Notes: generated by a model from the sequence alone, not told the origin. Positions 24,761 to 58,197 are shown, numbered from the stretch's first letter. The stretch: DNA of 64,000 nt from Phototrophicaceae bacterium (GCA_965207905.1 OZ242316.1:4163848-4227847); one strand, 5' to 3'. Translations and numbers: made by a program.

Positions 24761-24792
24761 TTTTTACCACAGAGACACAGAGACACAGAGAA
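24761..24792. repeat. CACAGAG-family repeat, left-end type (TTTTTACCACAGAGACACAGAGACACAGAGAA)
   Basis: 24773-24792 is the exact reverse complement of 25201-25220. 24761-24774 is the exact reverse complement of 26737-26750. Confidence 0.9.
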
Positions 24793-24815
24793 TTGAGGGG
24801 AGTTCGCTTCAAGAA

Positions 24816-25196
24816 ATGAGCCCAACTGATACACGTGACCCATTAACATACAGAATTATCGGCGCCGCCATAGAAGTACATCAGATCTTGGGAGCAGGAC
24901 TACTTGAAAACATTTATGAGGACGCGCTGTGTATCGAATTGGCAGAGCGCGGGCTCAGTTTCGAGCGTCAGAAACACCTTGAAATCAATTACAAGGGCCA
25001 TGATATTGGTGATCTTTTTGTAGATATCATTGTCGAGGATCGAGTGATCGTAGAATTGAAGTCGGTAAGAGAACTGGCGCCGATCCATAAGGCTCAGTTG
25101 ATGACATACCTTCGTGTGTCGAACATGGGGTTGGGGCTGCTGATCAATTTCAATGTTCCAAACTTGACGCAAGGAATACAGAGAGTTGTGCTTTGA
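24816..25196 (+). CDS. GxxExxY protein (PD-(D/E)XK nuclease superfamily)
   Basis: The ORF track starts at 24753 inside the repeat (HRDTETQR). The likely start is MSPTDTRDPLTYRIIGAAIEVHQILGAGLLENIYEDAL; the GxxExxY motif is GLLENIY, followed by VELKSV. Confidence 0.85.
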   Translation: MSPTDTRDPLTYRIIGAAIEVHQILGAGLLENIYEDALCIELAERGLSFERQKHLEINYKGHDIGDLFVDIIVEDRVIVELKSVRELAPIHKAQLMTYLRVSNMGLGLLINFNVPNLTQGIQRVVL

Positions 25197-25200
25197 GCAT

Positions 25201-25238
25201 TTCTCTGTGTCTCTGTGTCTACTTTCACAACCCCTCAA
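25201..25238. repeat. CACAGAG-family repeat, inverted copy (TTCTCTGTGTCTCTGTGTCT ... CCCCTCAA)
   Basis: It forms a perfect 20-bp inverted repeat with 24773-24792. CCCCTCAA (25231-25238) is complementary to TTGAGGGG (24793-24800). Confidence 0.9.
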
Positions 25239-25447
25239 TGAATCAAAGCAGAAACTAGCACAACTTGCAGTTTTTTTGTAGAATTTTGGTGCGGTGCGCG
25301 ATCCCCGTGTGTCTTTGGCAGAAAGTATGCCCTACAGAGTTTGGGACGGAGGCGAACTGACGAGCCGCTTGGCACTTAATTGATGCCCAAAAGTAGAGTA
25401 GGTCTTAGAACCTCAAAGCGCCTCTGCACCGCGGTATTACTGGCTCA
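25239..25447 (+). ncRNA. Possible IS110 bridge-RNA-encoding non-coding end (hypothesis)
   Basis: A ~200-nt ORF-free segment lies directly upstream of the IS110 recombinase gene. That is where IS110-group elements are reported to encode a structured guide (bridge) RNA. I did not verify any structure here. Confidence 0.3.
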
Positions 25448-26677
25448 ATGGTACAACCTACGAAACATAACCGCGTTCGCATCTCGCAAGGCGATTTCGC
25501 TGTAGCGGGTCGCTATGATTGCACAGCAGGTTGCGATGTAGACGCAGACTATGTCGTTGTCTCGCTTTTGAACTTCAAATCACAGACAAACGAAATTCGG
25601 CAAATACCTCAGACTCAGGCAAAAGCGAATGCAGCTGCAAAGTGGCTCAAACAGAACAAAGTAGAGTTCATAGTTCTAGAATCGACCGCAAATTATCATT
25701 TGACTTTTTATCACGCTTGCCGAAAACTTGGTCTGAATGTACACATCATCAATCCCGCTCAAGTCACGGCGCTACTTCGAATAGAGGGCAAGTCGGATAA
25801 GGCGGATGCGACAAATCTAGCCATGCTAGCCGCTACTTTTCCCCTAAGAACTTCCAATGTTCCAGATGCCCAACAAATAGAGATTCGTAGCAACTTGCGG
25901 AATTATGACCGCGACAGAAAAGCATTAACTAAAGTTAAGCAACGGGTTCATCAAGAACTTGCGCAGTTTGGAATAAATATCTTCCGGGAAACTACGTTGA
26001 GAACCCAATCAGGCCGGGCGTTTCTGGAAGCGCTTTCTCAGACAGAGGACGCGGCGGAAATGATTGTTCAGAATCACTGGAAAGGTTCACCTAGCAGCCG
26101 CCCAAGATTGATAGAGGCAATGGGGAAGACGGAAGAACTCCCAACTTGGCTTCGTCAGGAACTTGAAGTGCTAAGAATTGACCTACTTGTTCAAGAGCAA
26201 AGAATTAGAAACCGAGAACAACAAGCGCTAAATCATATCGAACATTTTGAGCTAGCGCCTCAGATCGCTTGGATGTCCACGACACCAGGAGTAAACTGGC
26301 TCGTAGCTTTACGACTAATTGGTGAAATGGGATCGGACTTTTGGCAACGATATTCAACATCAAGAGCCTGGTGTAAGGCTTTAGGGGTCGCCCCGAACAC
26401 TCTTGTTTCTGCCGGGAAAGTCCTTAAAACCTCGAAAGCCTTAGGAAATAATCATGCCAAGCGACATCTCCTCATGCAAATGCGTAATTGGTTATTGCGA
26501 AACCATGAGCACCCATTGAAACAGTGGCAAGTACAATATAGAGCTAAAGCAGGCTTTCGCAAATCAGTATCCGCGTGCTGCAATAAAGCCATGACCAGTT
26601 TATATCATCAAGGCCGGCACGGCGGTTTACCGTATAATCCGAGTCGGATGAAGTTACGATTCCCTGAAACTATCTAG
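25448..26677 (+). CDS. IS110 family transposase (DEDD recombinase)
   Basis: 409 aa. VEFIVLESTANYHLTFYHACRKLGLNVHIINPAQV...KSDKADATNLA is the typical N-terminal DEDD_Tnp_IS110 region. The C-terminal Transposase_20-like region includes PGVNWLVALRLIGEMG. Confidence 0.9.
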   Translation: MVQPTKHNRVRISQGDFAVAGRYDCTAGCDVDADYVVVSLLNFKSQTNEIRQIPQTQAKANAAAKWLKQNKVEFIVLESTANYHLTFYHACRKLGLNVHIINPAQVTALLRIEGKSDKADATNLAMLAATFPLRTSNVPDAQQIEIRSNLRNYDRDRKALTKVKQRVHQELAQFGINIFRETTLRTQSGRAFLEALSQTEDAAEMIVQNHWKGSPSSRPRLIEAMGKTEELPTWLRQELEVLRIDLLVQEQRIRNREQQALNHIEHFELAPQIAWMSTTPGVNWLVALRLIGEMGSDFWQRYSTSRAWCKALGVAPNTLVSAGKVLKTSKALGNNHAKRHLLMQMRNWLLRNHEHPLKQWQVQYRAKAGFRKSVSACCNKAMTSLYHQGRHGGLPYNPSRMKLRFPETI

Positions 26678-26736
26678 ACGCACGCATTCGCGACATGGTT
26701 GTGTTTTTGTGGCTGCCCCGAATTACGGGCGAGCAA

Positions 26737-26750
26737 CTCTGTGGTAAAAA
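26737..26750. repeat. CACAGAG-family right-end motif CTCTGTGGTAAAAA
   Basis: It is the exact reverse complement of TTTTTACCACAGAG at 24761-24774. Together they bracket GxxExxY plus IS110. Confidence 0.8.
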
Positions 26751-27931: not shown

Positions 27932-27948
27932 GCATAGGAGGGCAGGGC

Positions 27949-28964: not shown

Positions 28965-29369
28965 TTATTCGACTTCCCAATCTTCGACGTTCAAGCCGGG
29001 AATCCGCTCAAACTCGCTGATGTTATGTGTAACTACGATTAATCCCCTGGCGCGAGCAATGGCGGCTATCAGCATGTCGTGTTTGCCAATAGGAGAGCCG
29101 CGCTTTTCCAGAAAAGCGCGAATGCCGCCATACTCTTCCGCGGCGTCGTCATCAAAGGGTATACTTTCGAATTGCCGCAGAAAGTCGTCTTGTTTGGCGC
29201 GCGAACGTTCCGGCGTCTGACTCTTGCTGGAACCATAATACATTTCGCCCTTCGTAATCGCGCTTATGACGATGTCTGAAGAGGACTTGCTGTTAACTTG
29301 ATCGCGAACGCGGGGTGCTCTGCCATTGATATAATTTATGCAAGCATTGGTATCAAGCAAGTATTTCAT
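28965..29369 (-). CDS. vapC: PIN-domain toxin VapC
   Basis: 134 aa with MKYLLDTNACINYI...ISAITKGEMYYG...HDMLIAAIARARGLIVVTHNISEF, which includes the PIN acidic residues. Confidence 0.9.
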   Translation of the reverse strand: MKYLLDTNACINYINGRAPRVRDQVNSKSSSDIVISAITKGEMYYGSSKSQTPERSRAKQDDFLRQFESIPFDDDAAEEYGGIRAFLEKRGSPIGKHDMLIAAIARARGLIVVTHNISEFERIPGLNVEDWEVE

Positions 29370-30043
29370 TCACGCCGATCTTCATTCTCTACATATTCCG
29401 GCGGATGCCATTCAATCGGGTCGTCAGCCAGGCTGCCATAAGTCCGCTCGACGAAATCCGCCCAAGACATCTCGTGATCGTCTGTCGCGCCTTCCCGTCC
29501 CGCAGCGGGAATTGCTTCATGGTCGGTGGCTTCGATCGCCCTCAGCGTTGCCGCGAACGCGGGATTCTGCGTATCCGTAAAGCGTTCAAGGCAAGCGTCG
29601 TCCCGAAATAGCGCCCCGTCGGGCAGGATGGCGCCTGCGAAATCAGCATCGACAACGTCTGCGTCAGCCAGCCGCGCTCCCAACAAGTTTGCCCGATGCA
29701 GATTCACATGAGTCAGATTCGCTCCCTCCAGGCAGGCAAAACGCAAGTCCGCCATACCCAAGTTTGCTCGGCGCAGGTCTGCGCTATTGAGACTTGCGCC
29801 ATACAGGCGCGCTTGCCTCAAATTTGCGCCTTGCAGGTCACTTTCGCGGAGATTTGCGCCATCAAGAACAGCTCCGGCCAAATTCGCCCGGCGCAGGCTG
29901 GCGCCCGCCAAGTTCGCGTCCCGCAAATCGGCGACCGGTGCATCCTCGTGGCGGTCACCAACCGCAATGGTCTGTTGCTGCGTGTTTATCACAATCAGTC
30001 TGCTCAGCGAATCTAGGCCATGTCGTTGAACTGAGTGTATCAC
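29366..30043 (-). CDS. Pentapeptide-repeat protein in the antitoxin position of the VapC module
   Basis: 225 aa with a GTG start. About 20 consecutive A(D/N)LxG-type pentapeptides are present (ANLAGASLRRANLAGAVLDGANLRESDLQGANLRQARLYGASL...). The C-terminal tail is MSWADFVERTYGSLADDPIEWHPPEYVENEDRRE. There is a 4-nt ATGA overlap with vapC. Confidence 0.75.
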   Translation of the reverse strand: MIHSVQRHGLDSLSRLIVINTQQQTIAVGDRHEDAPVADLRDANLAGASLRRANLAGAVLDGANLRESDLQGANLRQARLYGASLNSADLRRANLGMADLRFACLEGANLTHVNLHRANLLGARLADADVVDADFAGAILPDGALFRDDACLERFTDTQNPAFAATLRAIEATDHEAIPAAGREGATDDHEMSWADFVERTYGSLADDPIEWHPPEYVENEDRRE

Positions 30044-34782: not shown

Positions 34783-34857
34783 TTTCACCACAGAGGGCGG
34801 AGGTCACGGAGGTTTTTTCACCACAAAGGGCACAAAGACACGAAGGTCACAAAGGGG
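34783..34857. repeat. CACAGAG-family repeat cluster, left-end orientation
   Basis: tttcaccacagagggcggaggtcacggagg is followed by ttttttcaccacaaagggcacaaagacacgaaggtcacaaag. 34813-34829 is an inverted repeat of 36623-36639 (16/17). Confidence 0.85.
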
Positions 34858-34896: not shown

Positions 34897-35871
34897 TTAC
34901 TGCATAGCGCGTTCTTTCCAGCGAACCGGCCCTAACTCTATCGGCAATGCACGAACAATTTCGTACAAACCGTCAAGATCATGCTGGATATCTTTCCAGA
35001 CGTACGGCTTAAGTAGGGCCGGTATCTCGGCCGATTCGGAAAACTTAAGCGCAATGATGGCGAACTTTTCTCCATACTCTCTCTTACGGCTCTTAGCATA
35101 GTTGATCTCGTCAGCCAAGATTCGTTCGTCTTTGAAGTCTTCTGTGATGAAGAAAACGACGGCACAACTTTCAGAGATTCCCCCGAAAATCCCTCTGTCG
35201 AGTTCCATTCCAGCATACATAGCGGGATCATCTAGCCACGGGTCGAAGCCCAATTGTTTGAGAACTTTGTGATATTTCTTTACTAGTTGTTTGTTTTCGG
35301 ATTTGTGACTTAGGAATATCCTTGTTTCATTCGTAGCCGGAATTCTTTCGATGGGAACAGCCTGCAATTCACGCGCTTCTTGAGATGGCATACCGATCGC
35401 TGCCTCCATTCTATCTCCCAAACTTAGGCAGAACGGCCTCACGACCAGCGAAAGAAAAAGTGACTTGCTTCCATCCATATCGCTCCAACGTGTGCGGCGA
35501 TCCTGCAAGTCTATGAAGTTCTGATCATGTTGGTTTGCATAGCCGTGGAGCAACTGGTATTGGAAGCTAAACTCTTCGTCCGGGTCGTCGGGAAATATCC
35601 AGATGCTACCGGTCTCCTTATCGAGTTTATCGTATTCGCTGTTCAGCCACGTTGTGAATCGGGCGGGTCCAGCATTTCTCATCAGAGGCGCTATAACTGA
35701 TTGCGCGACAGGATCTCGCTCCAAGAAGTTCAGCAGCGGGTGAAAATGATGGTCGAACTGCTCTATATCCTCGTTTATCAGTGCGTCTCGTCGCCTTTTG
35801 AATTGTCGTAACGTGTTGATCTGGGCGTCTCGTGTTATTTCGCTCACTTGGTGTACCTCATAGCAATACAT
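34897..35871 (-). CDS. TIR-domain protein with an uncharacterised N-terminal domain
   Basis: 324 aa. Residues ~183-305 (nt 34957-35325) read RIFLSHKSENKQLVKKYHKVLKQLGFDPWLDDPAMYAGMELDRGIFGGISESCAVVFFITEDFKDERILADEINYA, a bacterial TIR_2-like pattern. I recognise no motif in the N-terminal 180 aa. Confidence 0.75.
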   Translation of the reverse strand: MYCYEVHQVSEITRDAQINTLRQFKRRRDALINEDIEQFDHHFHPLLNFLERDPVAQSVIAPLMRNAGPARFTTWLNSEYDKLDKETGSIWIFPDDPDEEFSFQYQLLHGYANQHDQNFIDLQDRRTRWSDMDGSKSLFLSLVVRPFCLSLGDRMEAAIGMPSQEARELQAVPIERIPATNETRIFLSHKSENKQLVKKYHKVLKQLGFDPWLDDPAMYAGMELDRGIFGGISESCAVVFFITEDFKDERILADEINYAKSRKREYGEKFAIIALKFSESAEIPALLKPYVWKDIQHDLDGLYEIVRALPIELGPVRWKERAMQ

Positions 35872-36415
35872 TCTTTCTTGCGCAATATGGACAGTAGATC
35901 AAATCTAGCCAGCACGAAATGATTTTTATCGTCTCAGCACAGCACAGGAGTCGCACGACTTGCATATCGGGAAGCTCAGGTCCAGCTATCGGTTGCACCG
36001 AGATGGGCGATGATTCATGCGTAATCCGGATGAAGTCGTTTCTCCCGAATGAATTTGAAAGTCCATCAAACATGTTTCGAATTGACGGTTCTATGATGTG
36101 CCGAAACATCCACCTGTGCATGTATTCAGTAAACTCATCAGTATGCATATCTTGCTGAGCATCTGTATGTCCACAATAAGGACATGTCAATTCATCAAGT
36201 GTGTCTTCATTAACGTCTGAAGTTGATGAGACTAACGAATTTCCAGTGGTCTCGGCAAATATGGGTGCAAGCAACGTAGATAATTGTGATGGTTCGGTCA
36301 CGAGCTTGAAATGGAGTCCGCACGAGGCGCAGCCGCGTCGCATGTAACGGTCGCCGTCGAGCGAATACTCAATCTGAAATGTCCTAATGTCTGAATCGTG
36401 TTCGGACTCATTCAT
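35858..36415 (-). CDS. Hypothetical zinc-ribbon protein (Cys-knuckle pairs), partner of the TIR protein
   Basis: 185 aa with CASC (aa ~29-32), CPYC (aa ~78-81), CC (aa ~160) and a terminal CPYC. It overlaps the TIR gene by 14 nt. Confidence 0.6.
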   Translation of the reverse strand: MNESEHDSDIRTFQIEYSLDGDRYMRRGCASCGLHFKLVTEPSQLSTLLAPIFAETTGNSLVSSTSDVNEDTLDELTCPYCGHTDAQQDMHTDEFTEYMHRWMFRHIIEPSIRNMFDGLSNSFGRNDFIRITHESSPISVQPIAGPELPDMQVVRLLCCAETIKIISCWLDLIYCPYCARKNVLL

Positions 36416-36604: not shown

Positions 36605-36689
36605 TTCTTTGTGCCCTTTGTGCCTTTGTGGTCAAAAAAACCAATCCCCTAACTCGGTGCCCTCGGTGTACTCGGTGGTAAAGAAAAAA
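36605..36689. repeat. CACAGAG-family repeat cluster, right-end orientation (two units ending GTGGTCAAAAAAA and GTGGTAAAGAAAAAA)
   Basis: ttctttgtgccctttgtgcctttgtggtcaaaaaaa ... ctcggtgccctcggtgtactcggtggtaaagaaaaaac. Confidence 0.85.
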
Positions 36690-36725: not shown

Positions 36726-36748
36726 CAGCCCAAGTGGAGGACCGACCC

Positions 36749-37024
36749 ATGACCATCGATATCGCGGAAGACGTCGCGCTGCGCCTTGAAGCGCTCGCAA
36801 AAGCAAAAGACGCCGACATCAGCGACTTGCTGCGCGACATGATCGAGAGCTACGAGGACAAGGGCGACGCCAAACAGAAGCGCTGGGCGACAGGTGCGGA
36901 CTTTGCCAGAAACGCCAAAGCCGCAGGGCTGGCATCGCCCGAGCCGGTGGATACTTCAGCGCGCAGCCGCGAGATTCTTAGCACAGAGTTCGCAGACTAC
37001 TTGATACGCCGCGCCAACCGATGA
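36749..37024 (+). CDS. Ribbon-helix-helix (CopG/VapB-like) antitoxin
   Basis: The ORF track starts at 36734; ATG 36749 follows GGAGGA. MTIDIAEDVALRLEALAKAKDADISDLLRDMIE has the RHH pattern. It overlaps the PIN gene by 4 nt. Confidence 0.75.
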   Translation: MTIDIAEDVALRLEALAKAKDADISDLLRDMIESYEDKGDAKQKRWATGADFARNAKAAGLASPEPVDTSARSREILSTEFADYLIRRANR

Positions 37025-37434
37025 CCTTCATCGCGGACAGCAACTTTGTCTATGCGCTGTACAACGCCAATGATATCCATCATCAAGACGGGATGAGTTT
37101 GCTGTCTCAAAACTCGGAAGTTATGCTCGTGCCTGATGTGGTCCTGCCAGAAGTCGGTTATCTCATTGCGCGCGACATTGGCCACAGCGGAATGCCAACT
37201 TTCCTAGAGCACTTTATGCAGTTAGATGTTCGGCTTGAAGCGGTTGGCATGGAAGACTTGGCAAGAGTTCGCGATATTGTAAGCACCTATGCGGACGCCC
37301 GATTCGACATCGTAGACTGCTGTATCATGGCTATCGCTGAACGCCTGAACATCACGAGAGTCGCGACTTTCGACCGGCGTGACTTTAATATATTTCGCCC
37401 GCGCCACTGCGATTATCTTGAATTGTTGCCCTAG
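37021..37434 (+). CDS. vapC: PIN-domain toxin VapC
   Basis: 137 aa with FIADSNFVYAL...VLPEVGYL...DIVDCCIMAIAERLNITRVATFDRRDF. Confidence 0.85.
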   Translation: MTFIADSNFVYALYNANDIHHQDGMSLLSQNSEVMLVPDVVLPEVGYLIARDIGHSGMPTFLEHFMQLDVRLEAVGMEDLARVRDIVSTYADARFDIVDCCIMAIAERLNITRVATFDRRDFNIFRPRHCDYLELLP

Positions 37435-37447: not shown

Positions 37448-37571
37448 TTTCTTTGTGCCTTCGTGCCTTCGTGCCTTTGTGATCCAAAACATACCCTCTG
37501 TGCCCTCTCATTAACTCTGTGCCCTCGGTGGCAAAAGAAAAACACCTCTGTGTCTCTGTGCCTCTGTGGCC
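37448..37571. repeat. CACAGAG-family repeat cluster, right-end orientation (3-4 units)
   Basis: tttctttgtgccttcgtgccttcgtgcctttgtgatcc ... ctctgtgccctcggtggcaaaagaaaaa ... cctctgtgtctctgtgcctctgtggcc. Confidence 0.85.
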
Positions 37572-40152: not shown

Positions 40153-40181
40153 TCACCACAGAGGCACGAAGGGCATCGAGG
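40153..40181. repeat. CACAGAG-family repeat, left-end orientation (TCACCACAGAGGCACGAAGG...)
   Basis: It starts 2 nt after the ARH stop. tcaccacagag is the reverse complement of ctctgtggtga at 42528-42538. Confidence 0.8.
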
Positions 40182-40225
40182 AAAATGTAGGGTCGACATA
40201 TCATGTTGCCCGTATTCGCTTCTAG

Positions 40226-40376
40226 GAACTAGACAAAAGCCTTAGGTTGCCGCGATTGAAGGCCGTACAGCGCGGCCTGCTCGACCAGTTGATTGAAGCC
40301 GGTGGATCGGGAGATTGATGGGTTGGTGTACGCGTTGTATGGGTTGAGCGAGGAGGAGGCGGGGGTTGTGTCTGGG
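40226..40376 (+). pseudogene. Relic of the C-terminal tail of an RM/BREX-type N6-adenine DNA methyltransferase (two frames, no gene body)
   Basis: The frame from 40293 reads ...REIDGLVYALYGLSEEEAGVV. This matches the conserved EIDxLVYxLYGL(T/S)EEEIxxV tail I recall from type IIG / type I-like methyltransferases and PglX. A neighbouring frame reads ...RGLLDQLIEAGG and stops at 40316-40318. No upstream ORF exists. Confidence 0.4.
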
Positions 40377-44275: not shown

Positions 44276-44844
44276 CTGGGGAAGAGGCGCTGCAAGTCCA
44301 GCGTGAAACCGGGCAAGACGTTCTCGCCGCTCACGCTGCCGTCTTGCGCGACAAACTCGCTGACGGGCTGTCCTTCGGCGTCCGCGCGCCACACCTCGAC
44401 GCCCGCCCGCTCCGGCAAAACGAGCCACACCAGTTCGGTTCCGTTTGCCAGGTAGACCGCGGCTTTGCGGCGCTGTTCAGTCAGCGTGTTGCTTGGGGAT
44501 GAGATTTCGACCGCCAAGTCCGGCATGCGGGGGACGAACTTTTCGTGTTCGTCATGCGGCGCAGCCTGCTTTCGCAGAAAGGCGACATCGGGCGCAAGCA
44601 GTGTCTGGCGATCATCGGCGGGATAATAGGCGGATTCGACAGTGCCTTCGCCCAAGTCATGCGCTTCGGCGTAGTTCAAAAGAAAGCGGAAGATATGTCC
44701 TGCAAGTCGTCCATGTCTGTATCCCGGCGCCATATCCCAGAACAGCTCCCCATCAATGAGATAATAATGCTTGAGTTCATTTTCCGGCAGCTGCGCAAGC
44801 CGCCAGACGTCGTCAACTGTGTAGAGCCGCTCCTGAATCGCCAT
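44272..44844 (-). CDS. Uma2 family (DUF820) PD-(D/E)xK endonuclease, copy 1
   Basis: The likely start is MAIQERLYTVDDVWRL (44844). PDVAFL...PDLAVEISSPSN...K...Y is the Uma2 core. Its stop overlaps the convergent dehydratase stop (44272-44275). Confidence 0.85.
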   Translation of the reverse strand: MAIQERLYTVDDVWRLAQLPENELKHYYLIDGELFWDMAPGYRHGRLAGHIFRFLLNYAEAHDLGEGTVESAYYPADDRQTLLAPDVAFLRKQAAPHDEHEKFVPRMPDLAVEISSPSNTLTEQRRKAAVYLANGTELVWLVLPERAGVEVWRADAEGQPVSEFVAQDGSVSGENVLPGFTLDLQRLFPS

Positions 44845-44983
44845 GCTTGCCTCGCGACAATCTCTGAGTAAAGACAATTATAGCGCAATCCTCGCCCCGT
44901 CGGCAGAAGGGTCGGGTGCGCCAATGCGGCATTCATTTCCTGCGCGGGCGCGACCCGGCCGGCCCCGTCTGGCAGCCGAAGTC

Positions 44984-45556
44984 TTAGCTGGGGAAGAGGC
45001 GCTGCAAGTCCAGCGTGAAACCGGGCAAGACATTCTCGCCGCTCACGCTGCCGTCTTGCGCGACAAACTCGCTGACCGGCTGACCGTCGGCGTCCGCGCG
45101 CCACACTTCGACGCCTGCCCGCTCCGGCAAAACGAGCCACACCAGCTCGGTTCCGTTTGCCAAGTAGACCGCGGCTTTGCGACGCAGTTCAGTCAGCGTG
45201 TTGCTTGGGGATGAGATTTCGACTGCCAAATCCGGCATTCGGGGGACAAACTTCTCGTGTTCGTCAGGCGGCGCAGCCTGCTTGCGCAGAAAGGGGACAT
45301 CGGGCGCAAGCAGCGTCTGGCGATCATCAGCGGGATAATAGCCGACTTCGCCGGTGACTTCGCCCAAATCATGTTGTTCGGAGTAGATCAACAAGTAATG
45401 TCCGATGAGAATTTCGAGTCGTCCATGCCTGTATCCCGGCGCCATATCCCAGAACAGCTCCCCATCAATGAGATAATAATGCTTGAGTTCATTTTCTGGC
45501 AGCTGCGCAAGCCGCCAGACGTCGTCAACTGTGTAAAGCCGCTCCTGAATCGCCAT
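44984..45556 (-). CDS. Uma2 family (DUF820) endonuclease, copy 2
   Basis: It has the same N- and C-terminal sequence as copy 1. The patch RLEILIGHYLLIYSEQHDLGEVTGEVGY diverges from RLAGHIFRFLLNYAEAHDLGEGTVESAY in copy 1. Confidence 0.85.
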   Translation of the reverse strand: MAIQERLYTVDDVWRLAQLPENELKHYYLIDGELFWDMAPGYRHGRLEILIGHYLLIYSEQHDLGEVTGEVGYYPADDRQTLLAPDVPFLRKQAAPPDEHEKFVPRMPDLAVEISSPSNTLTELRRKAAVYLANGTELVWLVLPERAGVEVWRADADGQPVSEFVAQDGSVSGENVLPGFTLDLQRLFPS

Positions 45557-45646
45557 GCTTGCCTCGCGACAATCTCTGAGTAAAGACAATTATAGCGCAA
45601 TCCTCGCCCCGTCGGCAGAAGGGTCGGGTGCGCCAATGCGGCATTC

Positions 45647-45692
45647 ATATCCTGCGCGACAACGACCCGGCCAGCCTCTCTGGCAGCTGAAG
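45647..45692. repeat. Third, degenerate copy of the cassette boundary / dehydratase 3-prime end
   Basis: atatcctgcgcgacaacgacccggccagcctctctggcagctgaag compares with atttcctgcgcggcagcgacccggccggccccgtctggcagccgaag at 44223, about 75% identical by eye. Confidence 0.7.
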
Positions 45693-45697
45693 CACTC

Positions 45698-45767
45698 GCC
45701 ACAGACCGATTCAGCGCGATCGAGGGTTTTCTCTGTGCGCTCTGCGCCTCTGTGGTTTATCAAAAAA
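45698..45767. repeat. CACAGAG-family element without cargo (left GCCACAGAC, right TTCTCTGTGCGCTCTGCGCCTCTGTGGTTTATCAAAAAAG)
   Basis: Both end types lie within 70 bp. The element overlaps the last ~19 codons of the FAD oxidoreductase ORF. Confidence 0.75.
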
Positions 45768-46886
45768 GCGCCCATACCCAAACGGCGTCAGCAGCCCCGG
45801 CCGCTGCCCGCTGAGCGCCCACTCGGCCAGCAGCCGCGCCACCGCCGGCGCGATCGCCCAGCCATGCCCCGACCAGCCCACGCCCACCAGCATATTGTCC
45901 GCGCCGGGCAGCGCGTCGATGATAGGAATCCCGTCTATCGAGACCATCTCGGCGCGGTCGGTAGTGACCTCGTCCACCGCCAGGTCCGCCAGCGCCGGGT
46001 AGACCGCCACCGCTTCCAGCCGATTGCCCTCGACCTGTTCGGCGACCGGCTCGCCGCGCGCGGTCGTCTCGTCCCAGCGGCCGCGCCAGCCACCGGAGAC
46101 CATGACCCGCCCGTCCGGCAGCGGCTTGATCGCCAGCGTGCGATGCGCGTGCCCGATGAGGCGCCTCATCGGCGGCGGGATGTCCGCCCGCAGCGCCATC
46201 ACCTGCGGCAGCATGCGCCATATCGGCAGCTCTAGGCCCAGATACTCAGCGACAAAGGCGCCGACATGCGCGTTGGACAGCAAGATGAGCCGTTCGCCGA
46301 CCGGCACGTCAACCGTTTCGCCGTCAATTTCTACGCTGAGGCTGACGACGCGCTCTCCTCGCCGCGCCATGCCTGTGACGCGGGCATTCTCCTGTATGAA
46401 TGCGCCTTGCGCCTGCGCGGCCTTCGCCATTGAGCGCGTGGTGGCGCTGTGGTCGGCCACGCCATCGTTGGGGCAATATATCGCCGCGATGACGTCTTCG
46501 CTCAGTTGTGGCTCCAGTTCGCGGGTTTGGGCCGCGTCCAGGAGCTGCGATTCGATGCCCTGCTGATTCTGCAGCCAGACTTGCGCCGGCGCCCGCGCCA
46601 GGTCTTCTTCGCGCTCAATCAGGTCTAGATGACCCAAGCGCCGATAACCGGTGAAGCCGCCGATCTGCTCATGCAGGGTAGGCCAGATATCATAGGCCAG
46701 CCGCATCAGGGGCAGTTCGCGCAGATCGCGTCCGTTGGCGCGCACGCCGCGTTCGCCCAAGCCGCCGGATGCGCCGCTGGCGATGGTCTTCGCCTCCAGC
46801 AGCTGCACATCCGCGCCGCGTTTCGCCAGCTGCCAGGCGACCGCGCAACCGTAAATCCCGCCGCCGACGACGACAAATTCCGCCAT
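45711..46886 (-). CDS. FAD-dependent oxidoreductase (DAO / sarcosine-oxidase-beta-like)
   Basis: 391 aa with the N-terminal FVVVGGGIYGCAVAWQLAKRGADVQLLE dinucleotide-binding motif. The C-terminal tail ...FDKPQRRRAHRENPRSR is encoded by the CACAGAG repeat. Confidence 0.85.
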   Translation of the reverse strand: MAEFVVVGGGIYGCAVAWQLAKRGADVQLLEAKTIASGASGGLGERGVRANGRDLRELPLMRLAYDIWPTLHEQIGGFTGYRRLGHLDLIEREEDLARAPAQVWLQNQQGIESQLLDAAQTRELEPQLSEDVIAAIYCPNDGVADHSATTRSMAKAAQAQGAFIQENARVTGMARRGERVVSLSVEIDGETVDVPVGERLILLSNAHVGAFVAEYLGLELPIWRMLPQVMALRADIPPPMRRLIGHAHRTLAIKPLPDGRVMVSGGWRGRWDETTARGEPVAEQVEGNRLEAVAVYPALADLAVDEVTTDRAEMVSIDGIPIIDALPGADNMLVGVGWSGHGWAIAPAVARLLAEWALSGQRPGLLTPFGYGRFFDKPQRRRAHRENPRSR

Positions 46887-47048
46887 TGCTCAACTCGCTC
46901 TCATCTTTGTGCCGGGCTGATTATAGAAGAAGCGCCGGCGGCCGGGCAGGCTGTTTCCACGCCGCAATAGCCGGATTTGTCGGGATCGCCATGGAGTTGA
47001 CAGCGCTTGACAAACTCGCCCGCTTCGCCTGCGCATGCTGATATGGAC

Positions 47049-47077
47049 TTGCAACATTAGAATCTGGTTCTTATATA
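47049..47077 (+). promoter_or_regulatory. Candidate sigma70-type promoter for the SH3-domain protein gene
   Basis: TTGCAA (47049-47054), a 17-nt spacer, then TATATA (47072-47077). The SD GGAG lies ~8 nt before ATG 47140. Confidence 0.45.
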
Positions 47078-47139
47078 GGTAAATCATGGTACTCTGTACT
47101 TTGATTTTGCTATTACTTATCTATAACGGAGAATTAAGC

Positions 47140-48072
47140 ATGCGGAGAATCGTGTTCATACTTCTCGCTGCCGGCCTGTGCATATTATTTGTCCACGCGC
47201 TGCAGGCGCAGAGTCATGTCTGCGTCTCTTACGGGTCTGGTCGATACCTTTCGGTTAGACCCAATGCGTTGATGAAAGGAACCTTGGCAATCTTTGATGA
47301 TGCGGATTGCCTTACACAAACTGACTCGGTTGAGCCCGGGTCGCGCGGATGGGCCTACGCAAGTACCCAATCCAGGGCTAAGGCGATCTGCCGCTCAGAC
47401 GTCGCGCAGTTGAGCGGCGCCAATCCGTCACTATGGCGCTGCATCGCGCGCAAAAGAGGCAAACTGAGCAGCAACCTTCTCCGACCCGCGCGGCCCACTG
47501 GCGAGACCATCAATAAAGAAACCCTGCTGCGCCTGTATGCCGACAACGGAATGGAAAGCGGGATTCAATTTCAACGGGTGCGCGAAATGGGCATCGGGCA
47601 GCCGGCGATCATCAATCTGGGCTGGCTGGACGCCGTTAATGTCTGGGGCAATGTCGGCGCTGGATACAAAGTCTGCTTCCCGCAGGCCGGACGACCAATC
47701 TTCCTGGACGCCGCCTACCCGCCGCGCATGCCACGGGAGGCGCCCTTTGAGATGGACGACGGCTATACCTGCGTGGCGCTGGACACGGCCGGAACGATCG
47801 TTCTGGTTGCGGATCCCGCCGCCAATACCGACAAGAGCCAAGCGATACCACTGGCAGGCTGTAGCGTCACTACTTTGAAGAATCTTTACTTGCGCGACCG
47901 ACCGGAGGGGACTGTACAGACTCGACAAATCCCGGGCGCGACGCGCTTGCCAAGCTGGTCACGTACAGCCGGCTGGTTCGCTATCCAGTATGATGGCCAT
48001 TACGGCTGGGTCGCCGAACGCTTTGTCACTGCGGAAGGAAATTGCGAATATTTCTCTCCCGCACAGGCGTGA
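47140..48072 (+). CDS. Secreted protein with a C-terminal bacterial SH3 domain
   Basis: The ORF track starts at 47086. The likely start is MRRIVFILLAAGLCILFVHALQAQ (signal peptide). The C-terminal LYLRDRPEGTVQTRQIPGATRLPSWSRTAGWFAIQYDGHYGWVAERFV is SH3_3-like. Confidence 0.65.
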   Translation: MRRIVFILLAAGLCILFVHALQAQSHVCVSYGSGRYLSVRPNALMKGTLAIFDDADCLTQTDSVEPGSRGWAYASTQSRAKAICRSDVAQLSGANPSLWRCIARKRGKLSSNLLRPARPTGETINKETLLRLYADNGMESGIQFQRVREMGIGQPAIINLGWLDAVNVWGNVGAGYKVCFPQAGRPIFLDAAYPPRMPREAPFEMDDGYTCVALDTAGTIVLVADPAANTDKSQAIPLAGCSVTTLKNLYLRDRPEGTVQTRQIPGATRLPSWSRTAGWFAIQYDGHYGWVAERFVTAEGNCEYFSPAQA

Positions 48073-48099
48073 TCAGGGGAGCGCGACAGGGGCGGATTG

Positions 48100-49197
48100 C
48101 TACGCGTCCAGTTCGCCGTCGGGCAGCCCGGCTGGCAGCGCCGCCGGCTGATCGACTGCGCTTCTGAGCGTGACATGCTGGCCCAGCGCCGCCGATTCTT
48201 CCAGCGACAGCATGATATCCAGCACATGGAAGGCCAGGTCGCCGCTGGCGCGATGCGGCCGCCCGGACTGGATGGCGTAAGCCATATCGGCCACGCCCGA
48301 CCCACGACCGATCGAGCTGGAATGCGCCTTGGCGACATCCGCCCAATCGCGCGACCCGCCTTGGACCACGCGCACGACGCCGTCAAAGTTATTGGGGTCG
48401 GGCACGCTGAGCGAGCCGTCCTCGCCGTGAATTTCGATCCAGGGCAAGTGATGCCCCCAGACGTCAAAGCTGGTGATGACGCTGGCGATGGCGCCGCTTT
48501 CGAATTCCAGCGTGCCGGCGATATGCGTGTTGACTTCGACCGGCAGGACTTGGCCCATCAGCGCCTCGCTGGTGGCGATGCGTTCCGGGAAGGTCCTGCG
48601 GGCCGAGGCGGCGACCCGCGCCACCGGCCCCATCAGAGTCACCAGCGCGGTTAAATAATAGGGCCCCATGTCGAATAGCGGTCCGGCGCCCTCCAGGTAG
48701 AAGATGCCCGGGTTGGGATGCCAACTTTCCGGGCCGTGCGCCATGAAGAAAGCGGTCGCGGCCACCGGCTTGCCGATGACGCCGTCGTCTATGGATTTAC
48801 GCGCGGTCTGCAATCCGCCGCCGAGGAAGGTATCCGGCGCGCAGCCCAGACGCAAGCCCGCCGCCGCCGCGGCCCGAAGGACGCTTTCGCCATCCGCGCG
48901 GTTGATCGCCAGCGGCTTTTCGCTATAGGCATGTTTGCCCGCGTCGATGATTTTGAGCGAGATCTCGGCGTGCGCCGCCGGGATGGTCAGGTTGACCACG
49001 ATGTCGATATCAGCGCGCGCCAGCAGGTCGTCCACGCTATAAGCGGCGATGCCGTGCTCGGCAGCGAAGGCCTGGGCGCGGTCAGCCAATATATCGGCGC
49101 AGGCGACGATCTTGATTACGTCAAATGGCGCGCAGCCGCGGATATATGCCGGCGCGATATTGCCGACGCCGATGATTCCAACATTTAGTGTCTGCAC
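48100..49197 (-). CDS. Gfo/Idh/MocA family oxidoreductase (tandem paralogue A)
   Basis: The ORF track extends to 49410 through a REP hairpin. A GTG at 49197 gives VQTLNVGIIGVGNIAPAYIRG and 365 aa, the same length and start as the paralogue 49310-50407. Confidence 0.85.
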   Translation of the reverse strand: MQTLNVGIIGVGNIAPAYIRGCAPFDVIKIVACADILADRAQAFAAEHGIAAYSVDDLLARADIDIVVNLTIPAAHAEISLKIIDAGKHAYSEKPLAINRADGESVLRAAAAAGLRLGCAPDTFLGGGLQTARKSIDDGVIGKPVAATAFFMAHGPESWHPNPGIFYLEGAGPLFDMGPYYLTALVTLMGPVARVAASARRTFPERIATSEALMGQVLPVEVNTHIAGTLEFESGAIASVITSFDVWGHHLPWIEIHGEDGSLSVPDPNNFDGVVRVVQGGSRDWADVAKAHSSSIGRGSGVADMAYAIQSGRPHRASGDLAFHVLDIMLSLEESAALGQHVTLRSAVDQPAALPAGLPDGELDA

Positions 49198-54039: not shown

Positions 54040-54402
54040 ATGTTGACGGACGACATTCGGCTCGGGCGGATTGAACAAGAATACCAAACCGTGCGTGGCA
54101 CACAAGATCAGCTGATGGATCGCATGAACGGGACAGGCGATGTTTTGCAGAGCCTGTTCGATCAAGTGGCCGCCAACGCGAGGTTGATAGAAGCGAATCG
54201 AGACGCCAGCCGGCAAGCGACAGAAGCGAACCGCAAAGCGATAGAAGCGAACCGAAAGGCGATAGAAGCGAACCGAGAAGAGATCGTGCTCCTTCGCCAA
54301 GCGGTTGCGGAAAACAGCCAAATGCTTATGGATATCATGGATCACTTGCAAGTGCCTAAGAGACGGACAGGTTTCTTGAAGACTGATGACAGCCCGAGCT
54401 AA
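54040..54402 (+). CDS. Small coiled-coil protein with IEANRKA heptad repeats, paralogue of 42195-42440
   Basis: 120 aa. 21-bp tandem units lie at 54187-54207 (degenerate), 54220-54240, 54241-54261 and 54262-54282. The N- and C-termini match the 81-aa paralogue. Confidence 0.55.
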   Translation: MLTDDIRLGRIEQEYQTVRGTQDQLMDRMNGTGDVLQSLFDQVAANARLIEANRDASRQATEANRKAIEANRKAIEANREEIVLLRQAVAENSQMLMDIMDHLQVPKRRTGFLKTDDSPS

Positions 54403-54410: not shown

Positions 54411-57400
54411 CTACGAAAACCCCAGCCCCCGCACTCTCTCCCAAAACCGCTCCACATTACCCAGCTTGACCTCGTCGTAGCCGCGGATCATATCCGGCAG
54501 TTGCGCCAGTTCTACCGCCTGCTCGTAGTTGTCCGCGCTGAGGTCCTCAATCGCCGCGAAGACCAGCCGGCGGTACTGCGCGATGAGGTCGCGCTCGACG
54601 CGCCGCACGCGATCGTAGCCGAAGGGGTCAAAGGCCGTCCCGCGCAAGAATCGCATTTGCCGCAGCGCGCGGTAGACGACATCAAACCAGCGACCGACCT
54701 GTAGCTTGCGTTTCAAGCCCAGCGCTTTGAGCAGCGGCGGCTGCAAGTGATACTGGACCCGCGCCCGCGCCCCAAATTGCGCGCTGAGCGTCTCGCGCGC
54801 TTCCGGCTTCAGGCTCAGCCGCGCGACTTCGTACTCGTCTTTGTAAGCCATCAGCTTGAAGAGGTAGCGAGCGACGGCTTGGCTCAAGTCGGTCTGGCCG
54901 GGGCAAGCGGCCTGCTCCGTGGCGTATACGCGTTGGACATCGTCGACGTATCGGCGCGCATAGGCTTGGTTTTGATAGGCGATCAATTCCGGCACGCGAA
55001 CTTCGATCAGCCGCTTCAATTCGCCCTCGGCCGGCAGCGAGTCAATCAAGGCTTGCGCTGCTGCCGAGCGCTCGACCTGCGGCTCTACCTCGCCGACGCG
55101 CTTGACATCCAGCCCCGCCAGCCAGTCGCGGTCGGCCACGGCCAATCTGCCCGCGCGAAAGGCGTGCTGATTGTCTTCGACCTTGACGCCGTTCAATTCG
55201 ATGGCGCGCTCGATGGCGTCGGCGGACATGGGCAGGGTACCGGCTTGGTAGGCGGCGCCGATGACGATGAAATTCGCCATCATGTGGTCGCCAAAGAGCG
55301 TCTCCGCCAGTCCCAGCGCGTCGAAGAAGACGTTGTCGCCGGCTCTGGTCGCCCGGTTGATGATCTCCAGCAGATGATCGGCTTGGGGATATTCGACGGT
55401 GGTATCGCGCACCATAGCGCCGGTCGGCACTTTGCTGGTGCTGACGATGGCGACGCTGCGCTGCGGATTGGCGCGCGCCAGATTCTTGCTCGCGGTCGCC
55501 GTCAGCACGTCAAATGCCAGGAAGGCGTCGGTCGCGCTGGCGCCGATCTTGGGCGCGATGTCGATAGGCTCCGCCGTGATCTTGAGATTGGAGACGACCG
55601 GCCCGCCTTTCTGGCTGAGCCCGGTCTGGTCCAGCGAACGGACGTGATAGCCATCCAGCGCCGCGGCTGTGCCCAGCACCTGATTGGCGGTGACGACACC
55701 CGTACCGCCGATGCCCATCATCAAGATATTCGCCGTGCCGTTTACCCGTTGCCGCGGCGCCGCAATCGCCTGCTCGACGCGATAGCTCGGCTTGGCTTGC
55801 CGCTGCGGCAGCTCGGATGGGATAACGCTCATGAATGCCGGGCAGTTGCCCTCGAGGCAGCTGTAGTCCTTGTTGCAAGACGATTGATGAATCTGGGTTT
55901 TGCGGCCGAACTCGGTCTCGACCGGCTGCACACTGAGGCAATTGGAGACGGCGCCGCAATCGCCACAGCCTTCGCAGACCGCCTCGTTGATGACGATGCG
56001 CAGCGTGGGGTCGGCCGCCAGGCCGCGCCGCCGCTTGCGCCGCAAGTTGGCCGCGCATTCCTGGTCGTAGATCAAGGCGGTCACGCCGGGCGTATCGCGC
56101 AGGAGCAGCTGCGCCTCTTCCATGCGCTCGCGCTCCCAGACTTCGGCGCCCGGCGCCCAATGCGCATCCGGCGCGAACTTGCCCGGATCGTCCGAGATGA
56201 CGATGGTCTTCTTCACCCCTTCGGCGTAAAGCAGGTGGGTCATCTCCGGCACGGGCATCAAGCCATCGGCCGCTTGCCCGCCGGTCATGGCCACGGCCGA
56301 ATTGTAGAGGATCTTGTAAGTCACTTTCGTTCCGGCGGCGACCGCCTGACGCACGGAGAGCGAGCCGCTATGGGCGAAGGTGCCGTCGCCGATATTCTGG
56401 AAAATGTGGTCGATATTGGTGAAGGTTTCCGCGCCGACCCAATTGGCGCCCTCGCCGCCCATCTGCGTGACGCCGGCGGTATTGCGATCCATCATGATCG
56501 CCAGGGTGTGGCAGCCGATGCCCGCCCCGGCCATCGAACCGTCGGGCACCTTGGTGGAGCGATTATGCGGGCAGCCGGAGCAGAAATAGGGCGAGCGCGC
56601 GGCGATGGGAATCACGCCCAGGTCGGGCTGGCGTTTGATCGCGCGCAAGCGGCGCTCCAGCAGGGGCGCGTCTACCCGCCCGTTCAGACGCCGCGCCAGC
56701 ACCAGCGTGATCTCGTCGGCGTCCAGCTCGTTGTCGGCTTTGACCAGCTTGGCCCCCGTCTCGTCTTTCTTGCCGACGATTAGCGGAGTATGCGCGCTGC
56801 CGTAGAGCGCTTCCTTGCAGAAGATTTCGATGAAAGCGCGCTTCTCTTCAATCACGAGGATTTCGTCCAGGCCGGCGGCGAATTCGCTTAAGATTTCGCG
56901 CTCGAGCGGGAAGATCATGCCCAGCTTGAGCAGGCGGATGCCGGCGCGTTGCAGCGCTTCGTCGTCCAGGCCGATGTCGTTGAGCGCCCCGCGCAAGTCG
57001 TACCAGGTCTTGCCGGCGGCGATAATGCCCAGCCAGGCATCTTCCGTCGGCACGGCAATTTCGTTGATGTGATTGGCGCGCGCGAAAGCCAGGGCCGCGT
57101 CAAGCCGCTCGTCGTGAATTTCTTTCTCCTGCTGCAAGCTGTAAGGCGAGAGCAGGGCGGTATTCTGCCTTGGGCGCCAGGGCTGCCCGTTCAGCTGGAA
57201 ATCCGGCTCGCTGATGCTGACCCGCCCTGTGCCGACCTCGACGCTGCTGTATTCATCGGCGACATCGGTGACGATTTTGAAGCCGACCCAAAGCCCGCTG
57301 AAGCGCGACAAGCTGAAACCGAGCAATCCCATATCGAGGATTTCCTGCGCGCTGCCCGGGTAGAGGATGGGCATCAGCGCATCATAGAGCGCGACTTCGG

Positions 57401-57917
57401 AGTGCGACGGGATGGTCGAGGACTTGCATGAGGGGTCATCGCCGGCCAGGGCCAGCACGCCGCCGTATTGCCCTACGCCGGCCAGGTTGGCATGTTTGAA
57501 GGCATCGCCGCTGCGATCGACGCCGGGCCCTTTGCCGTACCAGATGCCGCAGACGCCGTCGAACTTCGGGTCGGGCAGCAGATTGACCGTTTGGCTGCCC
57601 ATGATGGCGGTAGCGGCCAAGTCTTCGTTCACGGCCGGGATGAAGCGGATATGATGCTCCTCCAGCAGATGCGGGATGCCTTCCAGCACGAAATCTAGCA
57701 CACCGATGGGCGAGCCGCGATAACCGGTGATCAAGCCGGCGGTATGCAGCCCGCGCGCTAGATCCGCTCGGTGCTGGTCCAGCGGCAGGCGCGCCAGCGC
57801 TTGAATGCCGCTCATGATGACCCGGCCGTCTTCGGCGGTATAACGGTCTTCCAGCGTGAAAGTCTTGATGTCGCGTGGCTCGGCGATAGCTGCGGGCGGC
57901 GCTTTGATCTTGAGCAT
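54411..57917 (-). CDS. Indolepyruvate ferredoxin oxidoreductase family protein (fused alpha/beta, 2-oxoacid:ferredoxin oxidoreductase)
   Basis: 1168 aa. The N-terminus reads TLEDRYTAEDGRVIMSGIQALARLPLDQHRADLARGLHTAGLITGYRGSPIG. It has a TPP region and a CxxCxxC...C ferredoxin-like cluster (CEGCGDCGAVSNC). Confidence 0.9.
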   Translation of the reverse strand: MLKIKAPPAAIAEPRDIKTFTLEDRYTAEDGRVIMSGIQALARLPLDQHRADLARGLHTAGLITGYRGSPIGVLDFVLEGIPHLLEEHHIRFIPAVNEDLAATAIMGSQTVNLLPDPKFDGVCGIWYGKGPGVDRSGDAFKHANLAGVGQYGGVLALAGDDPSCKSSTIPSHSEVALYDALMPILYPGSAQEILDMGLLGFSLSRFSGLWVGFKIVTDVADEYSSVEVGTGRVSISEPDFQLNGQPWRPRQNTALLSPYSLQQEKEIHDERLDAALAFARANHINEIAVPTEDAWLGIIAAGKTWYDLRGALNDIGLDDEALQRAGIRLLKLGMIFPLEREILSEFAAGLDEILVIEEKRAFIEIFCKEALYGSAHTPLIVGKKDETGAKLVKADNELDADEITLVLARRLNGRVDAPLLERRLRAIKRQPDLGVIPIAARSPYFCSGCPHNRSTKVPDGSMAGAGIGCHTLAIMMDRNTAGVTQMGGEGANWVGAETFTNIDHIFQNIGDGTFAHSGSLSVRQAVAAGTKVTYKILYNSAVAMTGGQAADGLMPVPEMTHLLYAEGVKKTIVISDDPGKFAPDAHWAPGAEVWERERMEEAQLLLRDTPGVTALIYDQECAANLRRKRRRGLAADPTLRIVINEAVCEGCGDCGAVSNCLSVQPVETEFGRKTQIHQSSCNKDYSCLEGNCPAFMSVIPSELPQRQAKPSYRVEQAIAAPRQRVNGTANILMMGIGGTGVVTANQVLGTAAALDGYHVRSLDQTGLSQKGGPVVSNLKITAEPIDIAPKIGASATDAFLAFDVLTATASKNLARANPQRSVAIVSTSKVPTGAMVRDTTVEYPQADHLLEIINRATRAGDNVFFDALGLAETLFGDHMMANFIVIGAAYQAGTLPMSADAIERAIELNGVKVEDNQHAFRAGRLAVADRDWLAGLDVKRVGEVEPQVERSAAAQALIDSLPAEGELKRLIEVRVPELIAYQNQAYARRYVDDVQRVYATEQAACPGQTDLSQAVARYLFKLMAYKDEYEVARLSLKPEARETLSAQFGARARVQYHLQPPLLKALGLKRKLQVGRWFDVVYRALRQMRFLRGTAFDPFGYDRVRRVERDLIAQYRRLVFAAIEDLSADNYEQAVELAQLPDMIRGYDEVKLGNVERFWERVRGLGFS

Positions 57918-58030
57918 AATCGACCTAATCTCTACTTGGCCTCACCTTCATTTATAACAGATTACGCCTGCGATAGCACCCGGCGCGGGGCGTACGACAG
58001 AGCAATCGCTTCAAATAAGTTTCAACAAAG

Positions 58031-58197
58031 AGAGCGCAGAGGGCACAGAGTTCGTAGGAGTTTAGACGACTATTCTACTAAATCTGCGGCCTGGGTTAGG
58101 CAACAGTCACTAGCGAAACGTGAACCACAAATCACAGTTCAAATAAGACATGAACACATATTCTTTGTTTTTCTCTGTGTTCTCTGCGCCCTCTGTA
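58031..58197. repeat. CACAGAG-family element without protein cargo (~165 bp between inverted ends)
   Basis: The left end is agagcgcagagggcacagag (58031-58050) and the right end is ttctctgtgttctctgcgccctctgtag (58171-58197). They are imperfect inverted repeats sharing the gcgcagag and cacagag blocks. Confidence 0.7.

Follow-up and report, generated by a model that had tools for sequence, protein, structure and literature searches.

Inverted arrays of an 8-9-nt repeat in a Phototrophicaceae genome: a probable MITE-like DNA family and its relation to variable defence slots

A 64-kb stretch of the genome of a Phototrophicaceae bacterium (GCA_965207905.1, OZ242316.1:4163848-4227847; hereafter, the window) contains short repeat arrays scattered among genes for a GxxExxY nuclease, an IS110-family insertion sequence (IS), a TIR-domain and a Zn-ribbon protein, a VapBC toxin-antitoxin pair, and a DUF4365 pair, all flanked by housekeeping genes (Table 1). 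These gene calls come from an earlier sequence-only reading of the window and are correct. The same reading distinguished three cargo-bearing segments, islet A (GxxExxY and IS110), islet B (Zn-ribbon and TIR) and islet C (the DUF4365 pair and a coiled-coil gene), each lying between a left-type and a right-type array, i.e. arrays of opposite orientation, and proposed that the repeats delimit, and perhaps mobilize, defence and toxin-antitoxin cargo. All ten intervals in which copies had been reported do contain units in the orientation given, and the matches between the ends of the islets hold as well (14/14 for islet A, about 16/17 for islet B, and 11/11 for islet C). Besides several arrays that are nested or solo, the window has one copy that carries a gene (GxxExxY) and one, at 58 kb, that is compact. 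We think it probable that these are copies and fragments of one palindromic DNA family resembling miniature inverted-repeat transposable elements (MITEs), and that the arrays mark variable slots without acting as mobile ends for islets B and C.

Table 1. Repeat arrays and associated genes in the window; labels of the form L006 denote other loci compared with it
Feature	Position	Strand	Remarks
Left arm of GxxExxY unit	24761-24791		T5-ACCACAGAG-(ACACAGAG)2-A; matches the reconstructed right arm as a perfect inverted repeat
GxxExxY PD-(D/E)XK nuclease gene	24816-25196	+	126 aa; lies in the "loop" of the element
Right arm, inner part	25201-25220		TTCTCTGTGTCTCTGTGTCT, ends in the CT insertion core; break point versus relatives at 25220
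IS110-family IS in right arm	25221-26736	+	CT on both sides; transposase coding sequence 25448-26677
Bridge-RNA-like internal loop in IS leader	25303-25346	+	GUGUGUCU (25307-25314) and CUACAGAG (25332-25339) around a small hairpin; predicted fold
Right arm, outer part	26737-26750		CT-CTGTGGTAAAAA
Two nested left-type arrays	34783-34857		Outer CACAGAG/CACGGAG, inner CACAAAG; break point versus L006 at 34794
Islet B cargo: TIR-domain protein (34897-35871) and Zn-ribbon protein (35858-36415)	34897-36415	-	Candidate defence pair PDC-M14
Two nested right-type arrays	36605-36689		Inner CTTTGTG, outer CTCGGTG; kept in L006; break point at 36606
VapBC toxin-antitoxin pair	36734-37434	+	RHH and PIN domains; aligns with L006, L328, L329
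Three right-type arrays, no left partner	37448-37571		Upstream of the conserved thiS-like promoter
Left-type array	40153-40181		Directly after the ADP-ribosylglycohydrolase stop codon
MmeI-like restriction-modification gene, 3' remnant	40229-40380	+	Intact in L007, L328, L329, L330
Islet C cargo: B (40401-41558) and A (DUF4365, 41551-42078)	40401-42078	-	Candidate defence system PDC-M02
Right-type array	42496-42549		8 nt upstream of the ilvD start codon
Solo right-type array	45731-45767		Overlaps the 3' end of the FAD-oxidoreductase open reading frame
Compact element	58031-58197		Left array 58031-58050, loop of about 122 nt, right array 58173-58197

The repeat unit, previously described as heptamer-like, is 8-9 nt long and consists of a 7-nt core, C-R-C-N-R-A-G, and a purine spacer of 1-2 nt; ACCACAGAG is the outermost unit. 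An arm is a tandem array of 2-4 units, the two arms are mutually inverted, and the DNA between them ranges from a few bases to one whole small gene. A search of the window with the pattern C[TC][CT][TGC]G[TC]G, allowing spacers of 0-3 nt, revealed 14 arrays of at least two units and seven of at least three units (3.7 and 0.04 expected, respectively), and ACCACAGAG occurs six times against 0.37 expected. The only array match outside the previously reported intervals, at 8.8 kb, is chance-like, and Tandem Repeats Finder detected 8-9-nt periods at the same sites as the arrays. Right-type arrays outnumber left-type ones, 9 versus 4. The ending in GTGGT and an A-run, earlier taken to be a feature of every copy, was found at about 8 of 14 ends in the window and is not general in other genomes.

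A set of 183 non-redundant compact elements, taken from other genomes, has CACAGAG as the most frequent core; the 1-2 nt between cores are purines on that strand in nearly all cases. The cores of the two arms mismatch at 0.2-19% per position, and the spacers at 48%. Thus, the arms are alike because both are arrays of one consensus in opposite orientation, and base pairing between them is not maintained. The consensus unit lacks T on one strand and A on the other, hence it contains no stop codon in any of the six frames. This stop-free character is the cause of the previously noticed extension of open reading frames into the repeats, namely the HRDTETQR extension of GxxExxY, the extension upstream of ilvD, and the tail of the oxidoreductase, and it also accounts for the HRDTE, TEDTE and HRGHR N-termini of public GxxExxY homologues.

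The arrays do not always form inverted pairs, as had been claimed: a left partner is missing for the five right-type arrays around VapBC, the copy at 45.7 kb is one-armed, and right-type-only arrays are found in relatives. Among the two copies earlier considered to be cargo-less, 58031-58197, which has the POR gene on one side and a CopD-like gene on the other, is indeed palindromic and compact (z = -4.4 for its fold against shuffled sequences), whereas 45698-45767 has one arm, forms no significant hairpin and folds like its shuffles (z = 0.08). The region around the latter copy (45610-48101) encodes the FAD oxidoreductase and a 328-aa protein without a Pfam match; in relatives, this place is occupied by a gene of about 345 aa or is nearly empty. 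Other repeats also occur in the window. The segment 16186-16340 consists of 3.5 tandem copies of a 45-bp unit with the GC-rich palindrome GGGCGAGCGGAGGCTCGCCC and may be a cluster of another element, one similar to repetitive extragenic palindromes (REPs), and in-gene tandem repeats unrelated to the octamer family are found at 8766-8854 (33 bp x 2.7) and 54215-54284 (21 bp x 3.3).

The exact 16-base pattern CTCTGTGNCTCTGTGGT was found in at least 120 stretches in IMG/VR and at least 120 in GTDB species genomes. The matches listed belong to Acidobacteriota, Planctomycetota, Verrucomicrobiota/Lentisphaerae, Chloroflexota, Cyanobacteria (Nostoc, Anabaena, Microcystis), Alpha-, Beta- and Delta-type proteobacteria (Magnetospirillum, Sulfuritalea, Sorangium, Syntrophobacter), Bacteroidota, Spirochaetes, and one archaeon (a Methanotrichaceae metagenome-assembled genome), so that nearly identical end sequences are seen in more than 10 phyla; listed IMG/VR matches include phage contigs with portal, capsid and tail genes. 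Very often, a match on the minus strand has one on the plus strand within the next 150 bp, which gives the compact palindrome TCACCACAGAG(NCACAGAG)2-3, loop, (CTCTGTGN)2-3CTCTGTGGTGA. Among the matches listed, 162 of 215 adjacent left-then-right pairs are at most 150 bp apart, and the arms of compact copies have a median length of 28 bp and 90% identity. Comparison of paralogues from the same contig (L065, L012, L199, L162, L097, L018, and L046) revealed homologous loops and unrelated flanks, with the homology bounded exactly by ACCAC...GTGGT. Sharp ends, shared loops and unrelated flanks are the signature of copy-and-paste spread, and two related phage contigs differ by one compact element, which only one of them has. 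With compact copies dominating, the earlier designation of the family as MITE-like is supported. In Pyrinomonadaceae (L203, L133, L143, L173, and L191), the order is mostly a right-type array, about 20-27 nt, and then a left-type array, so that the GTGGT/ACCAC ends face each other between co-directional genes; these are abutting elements or an alternative form of the palindrome.

Stem mismatches and genomic context speak against an RNA signal. Wobble-type mismatches in the stems are symmetric, 175 versus 165 by strand, and 65 sense versus 68 antisense with respect to transcription. On this symmetry, and on the spacers, which are not kept complementary between the arms, a role of RNA structure was rejected. 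The contexts of compact elements are tandem in 66 cases, convergent in 19 and divergent in 17, with no preference for gene 3' ends. In the window, a T-run precedes the arms and an A-run follows them, and none of the terminator-like patterns found there by a consensus scan falls on any array. Relatives without arrays keep the neighbouring promoters, e.g. TTGACA...TTCTAAT upstream of the thiS-like gene. A terminator or promoter role was rejected on these position statistics, the consensus scan, and the conserved promoters outside the arrays. The window has no matches in Rfam at gathering thresholds, and five element-rich loci yielded at permissive thresholds only sub-threshold miRNA-like hairpins.

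These results bear on the alternative that the repeats are host cis-regulatory hairpins, i.e. RNA terminators, mRNA stabilizers, RNase III sites or insulators of acquired genes. The pairing capacity of the arms, as in the 58-kb copy, is consistent with it, as are the arms of the GxxExxY unit, which would close the mRNA into a 31-bp stem, and the location of some arrays directly upstream of ribosome-binding sites (ilvD and Fe-ADH). With mismatches symmetric between strands, no family in Rfam, no U-tract terminators on arrays, and arrays that close relatives dispense with, we regard this alternative as improbable, and the outcome of the RNA tests leads us to treat the element as a DNA-level one, selfish or neutral. 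Comparison by eye with the DnaA box, the CRP site, KOPS and the attC cores gave no fit.

A different DNA-level role would be that of Chi-like polar signals, in which G/T-rich 8-mers with GTGG at their end, pointing inwards around the cargo, weaken nucleases of the RecBCD/AddAB type and give rise to hot spots of recombination. The unit CTCGGTGG resembles the Chi sequence of E. coli, GCTGGTGG, right-type arrays prevail in the window and make up almost all arrays of L328, L329, and L330, and copies are dense in phage contigs. Chi, however, is lineage-specific, whereas the unit stays constant in one archaeon and in phyla that differ in their end-resection enzymes; moreover, whole elements are copied, loops included. 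This role thus seems very improbable.

The only truly repeat-bounded unit of the window is a 0.45-kb segment with the GxxExxY gene between 31-bp arms. After removal of the IS110 element and one copy of CT, the arms are restored to a perfect 33-nt block, the core of which is a 31-bp inverted repeat. The loci L001, L003, and L004, from related metagenome-assembled genomes with about 85% DNA identity, have the same order of aldolase, left arm, GxxExxY, right arm, and Fe-ADH. The protein, 100% identical to P0001, is recognized by the TIGR04256 (152 bits, cutoff 35) and PF13366 (148 bits, cutoff 22) profiles. Its AlphaFold2 model has a pLDDT of 93.7, with the predicted fold of a minimal PD-(D/E)XK nuclease, and shows weak fold matches to Cas4 and lambda exonuclease, which are the nearest; no solved structure is related to it by sequence.

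Seven unrelated GxxExxY loci were inspected (the window with its orthologues, L162, L227, L242, L333, L335, and L336), and in all seven the gene has arrays on both sides and behaves together with its arms as a discrete unit. The arms are matched in six of them, with one unit variant within each locus. Two of the matched-arm loci lie inside operons, between oppA and oppB and between genes for a chorismate-binding (menF-like) and a TPP-dependent (menD-like) enzyme, and in L162 one complete compact element is found on each side of the gene. The arms of GxxExxY units, unlike those of typical compact copies, agree at the spacer positions too, which suggests that these units may be younger or homogenized. 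The short left-right pairs also enclose unrelated small genes encoding GNAT, DUF6335 and DUF6527 proteins, and a search for GxxExxY genes in the phage contigs found none. The GxxExxY nuclease is the only recurrent candidate for an enzyme that might spread the family, and the presence of three GxxExxY genes in 1.9 Mb of array-selected DNA is compatible with an autonomous/non-autonomous relationship. A bolder proposal is that the arms and the nuclease constitute an undescribed class of autonomous mobile elements; compact derivatives without the gene would have reached more than 10 bacterial phyla and their phages, and the loops would capture small genes. Together they would form a nuclease-driven cassette system, seeding and bordering defence hot spots and targeted by the guide RNAs of IS110 elements. 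We regard this proposal as speculative and rather unlikely.

The IS110 element, which the sequence-only reading counted as cargo of islet A together with GxxExxY, has another history. The repeat-bounded status of GxxExxY stands, and the IS was inserted into the right arm later: it is missing at the orthologous loci L001, L003, and L004, with break points at 25220 and 26738. Its transposase is of the DEDD type (NF033542, 148.7 bits at a cutoff of 140, plus PF01548 and PF02371). A second identical IS copy on another contig and an 87%-identical relative have the same array target, ...CTCTGTGTCT^IS^CTCTGTGG...; these other copies sit in L331 and L332, and three independent insertions share the target. 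In the bridge RNAs described for IS110 elements, both sides of an internal loop correspond to the target. In the predicted loop of the IS leader, the 5' side, GUGUGUCU, matches the left flank of the target and the CT core at 7 of 8 positions, and the 3' side, CUACAGAG, matches the complement of the CT core and the right flank at 7 of 8 positions; the leader as a whole folds no better than its shuffles. The leader looks like a putative bridge RNA programmed for a non-REP repeat. The absence of the IS from relatives, its repeated insertion at the array and the match between the predicted loop and the target identify it as a specialized array parasite. The IS110 element is a later, array-targeted arrival, neither cargo nor mobilizer.

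We compared the window with eight related loci; an Fe-ADH-anchored metagenome scan yielded only two close relatives, L249 among them. The TIR protein of islet B matches PF13676, and PADLOC assigns PDC-M14A with E = 1e-21. For islet C, the matches to PDC-M02 have E-values of 1.5e-85 and 3.7e-41. By the alignments, the VapBC pair belongs to the conserved frame common to relatives.

The arrays at the two sides of islet C are distributed differently. Of 6 genomes, 5 have the right array before ilvD, the exception being L329, and the left array after the ADP-ribosylglycohydrolase gene is found in the window and L006 only. The two "ends" of the islet therefore have different histories. The three arrays before the thiS-like gene are likewise confined to the window and L006, being absent in L328 and L329. 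Against L007, L328, and L330, the variable part of islet C stops at about 42194-42298, about 200-300 bp short of the array, since the conserved frame includes the 81-aa gene with its strong promoter. This gene is the coiled-coil gene formerly included in the cargo. The sequence CAGTATAAT upstream of ilvD was considered as the ilvD promoter and rejected, the strong match being the minus-strand promoter of the 81-aa gene.

The slot between the ADP-ribosylglycohydrolase gene and ilvD is a defence hot spot in every relative, with or without arrays, and contains an MmeI-like restriction-modification gene, SduA_C, Dcm with an ATPase, or PDC-M02. The remnant at 40229-40380 (...LVYALYGLSEEE..., MmeI/Eco57I-type) records a deletion inside this slot. 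Arrays are missing from 4 of 9 variable slots (21-57 kb). One array-less slot is a 1.1-kb segment with PIN-domain and pentapeptide-repeat genes (28965-30043), which is absent in L001 and L249 and present in L003, and L249 has a restriction-modification system between the aldolase and Fe-ADH genes, with no arrays. Other array-less slots hold Uma2-family (PD-(D/E)XK) genes by ilvD, which vary among relatives from none to two (44272-45589 in the window), and a Uma2 or OLD-like nuclease near ThuA (51.3-52.7 kb). Most arrays in relatives are right-type only, and arrays have been gained and lost independently among relatives. The intergenic spacers of relatives also contain GTAG-tagged REP-like palindromes, GTAGGGGCGACC....GGTCGCCCCTAC, found in L006 (7810-7835), L007 (1250-1600, 2790-3060, and 13680-13750), and downstream of the ADP-ribosylglycohydrolase gene in L328-L330; in the window they are degenerate (40186-40215).

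Taken together, these comparisons indicate that the defence and toxin-antitoxin islets would not move as repeat-to-repeat units. Under the explanation that we favour, a MITE-like family whose arrays mark slots, movement would occur at the DNA level via a trans-acting enzyme recognizing the repeated 7-nt cores. Arrays and defence or toxin-antitoxin islets would co-localize because both accumulate in a few permissive spacers between core genes, and the loops or hairpins of the elements may also favour insertion. Sharing of permissive spacers would make the arrays markers of slots and, sometimes, exact junctions.

Several observations weigh against this explanation. Synteny between the window and L006 breaks exactly on array edges (34794, 36606, and 42497), and L006 has unrelated cargo between the equivalent nested arms of the islet B slot, a pattern that a docking-site or cassette system would give. 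In broad data, orphan left-right pairs are enriched at 150-720 bp only, where each surrounds one small gene. The family keeps its sequence across phyla, which MITEs and REP elements do not usually do. No target-site duplication was seen in the alignments, in which few insertions were inspected, and a transposase with these ends was not found either, so that transposition is a presumed mechanism. Finally, the statistics on the source genome cover the 64-kb window only.

The first of these points, together with the divergence of PDC-M02B (36% protein identity between the window and L006, with flanks of about 92%), the small genes in short pairs and the arrays on both sides of every inspected GxxExxY gene, would be explained if the inverted arrays were recombination sites and the DNA from a left-type to a right-type array were exchanged as a unit, like integron cassettes or pdif modules. 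Such exchange at the scale of the defence islets is at odds with the broad data, in which left-right pairs more than 1 kb apart are no commoner than right-left ones and contain ordinary genes (portal, capsid, tail or housekeeping). The claim that inverted pairs enclose accessory cargo at this scale is thus not borne out. In the comparison with related loci, the arms of islet C occur in different relatives, and cargo changes while arrays stay. In addition, the arrays of relatives are mostly single-armed, nearly half of the variable slots have none, L249 swaps cargo without them, no recombinase is encoded near the arrays, and attC core sites are absent. We consider the cassette explanation unlikely. 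The proposal that the repeats delimit or mobilize cargo survives for the small GxxExxY unit only; around the defence islets, arrays share insertion-prone spacers with the cargo and now and then form a junction.

Should the family prove as widespread as these scans suggest, it would make up a major unannotated part of the intergenic DNA of Acidobacteriota, Planctomycetota, Chloroflexota, Cyanobacteria and their phages. Recurrent annotation artefacts, i.e. N-terminal extensions of the HRDTE/TEDTE type and C-terminal tails, are accounted for, and the very large, uncharacterized GxxExxY family gains a concrete genomic context. The IS110 element provides a natural example with a predicted guide for a dispersed non-REP repeat. 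For studies of defence islands, the arrays are markers of insertion-prone slots and should not be taken as the ends of mobile islands.

Comparison with known systems revealed partial similarities to several of them. Integron attC sites, cassettes and pdif modules are also imperfect palindromes with a variable centre that bound small promoterless or accessory genes, with cargo including toxin-antitoxin, GNAT-type and unknown small genes. The ends in the window are, however, ACCAC...GTGGT(A/G)AAA and not the RYYYAAC...GTTRRRY of the R''/R' core sites, no integrase is found among the annotated open reading frames of the window, and there is neither a unidirectional array nor Xer-type half sites; the gene is located inside the palindrome and not between palindromes. 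The PeSL cassettes of T4-type phages, reportedly described by Arbiol and colleagues in 2010, are said to be intergenic stem-loops flanking small accessory genes in plastic phage regions, thought to shuffle by recombination, and to be promoter-containing and specific to phage lineages; the present elements lack features of promoters and terminators and are common to hosts and phages.

REPs are defined as palindromes of 20-40 bp tagged with GTAG or CGTC (PMC3733652). Like REPs, bacterial interspersed mosaic elements and REPINs, which are mobilized by RAYT (REP-associated tyrosine transposase), the arrays are abundant extragenic palindromes and insertion targets of IS110-family elements, and true GTAG-type REPs adjoin arrays in relatives. 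They differ in having no GTAG or CGTC tag, with ends of the form (T/A)(C)ACCACAGAG, and arms of 20-35 bp made of repeated units, in showing no 3'-end preference, and in not being species-specific; no RAYT-type gene is present near the arrays among the annotated open reading frames of the 64-kb window. The IS inserted in the window is similar to IS110 elements of the IS621 type in its DEDD transposase, the lack of inverted repeats, the CT core that flanks it on either side, its recurrent choice of one sequence in a dispersed repeat, and the predicted internal loop in the 5' leader. It differs in that its target is the octamer array, not a REP, and its guide is predicted only.

Neither Rfam nor the searchable literature on the repeat sequence, GxxExxY/PF13366, and the 23S-IVS protein family yielded a description of the repeats, and the widespread repeat family is apparently uncatalogued. 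The closest parallel is with MITEs such as the Correia elements of Neisseria and the cyanobacterial Nezha, which are likewise small, non-coding and palindromic, have hairpin-forming terminal inverted repeats, and occur as dispersed copies with sharp ends and unrelated flanks in intergenic positions, including promoter and leader regions, and as nested insertions. Unlike in MITEs, the arms are tandem 8-9-nt units instead of a unique inverted repeat, no target-site duplication is seen and no transposase-bearing parent is known, near-identical ends extend over more than 10 phyla and phages, and the loop can hold a gene. The family shows most, not all, of the features by which MITEs are recognized.

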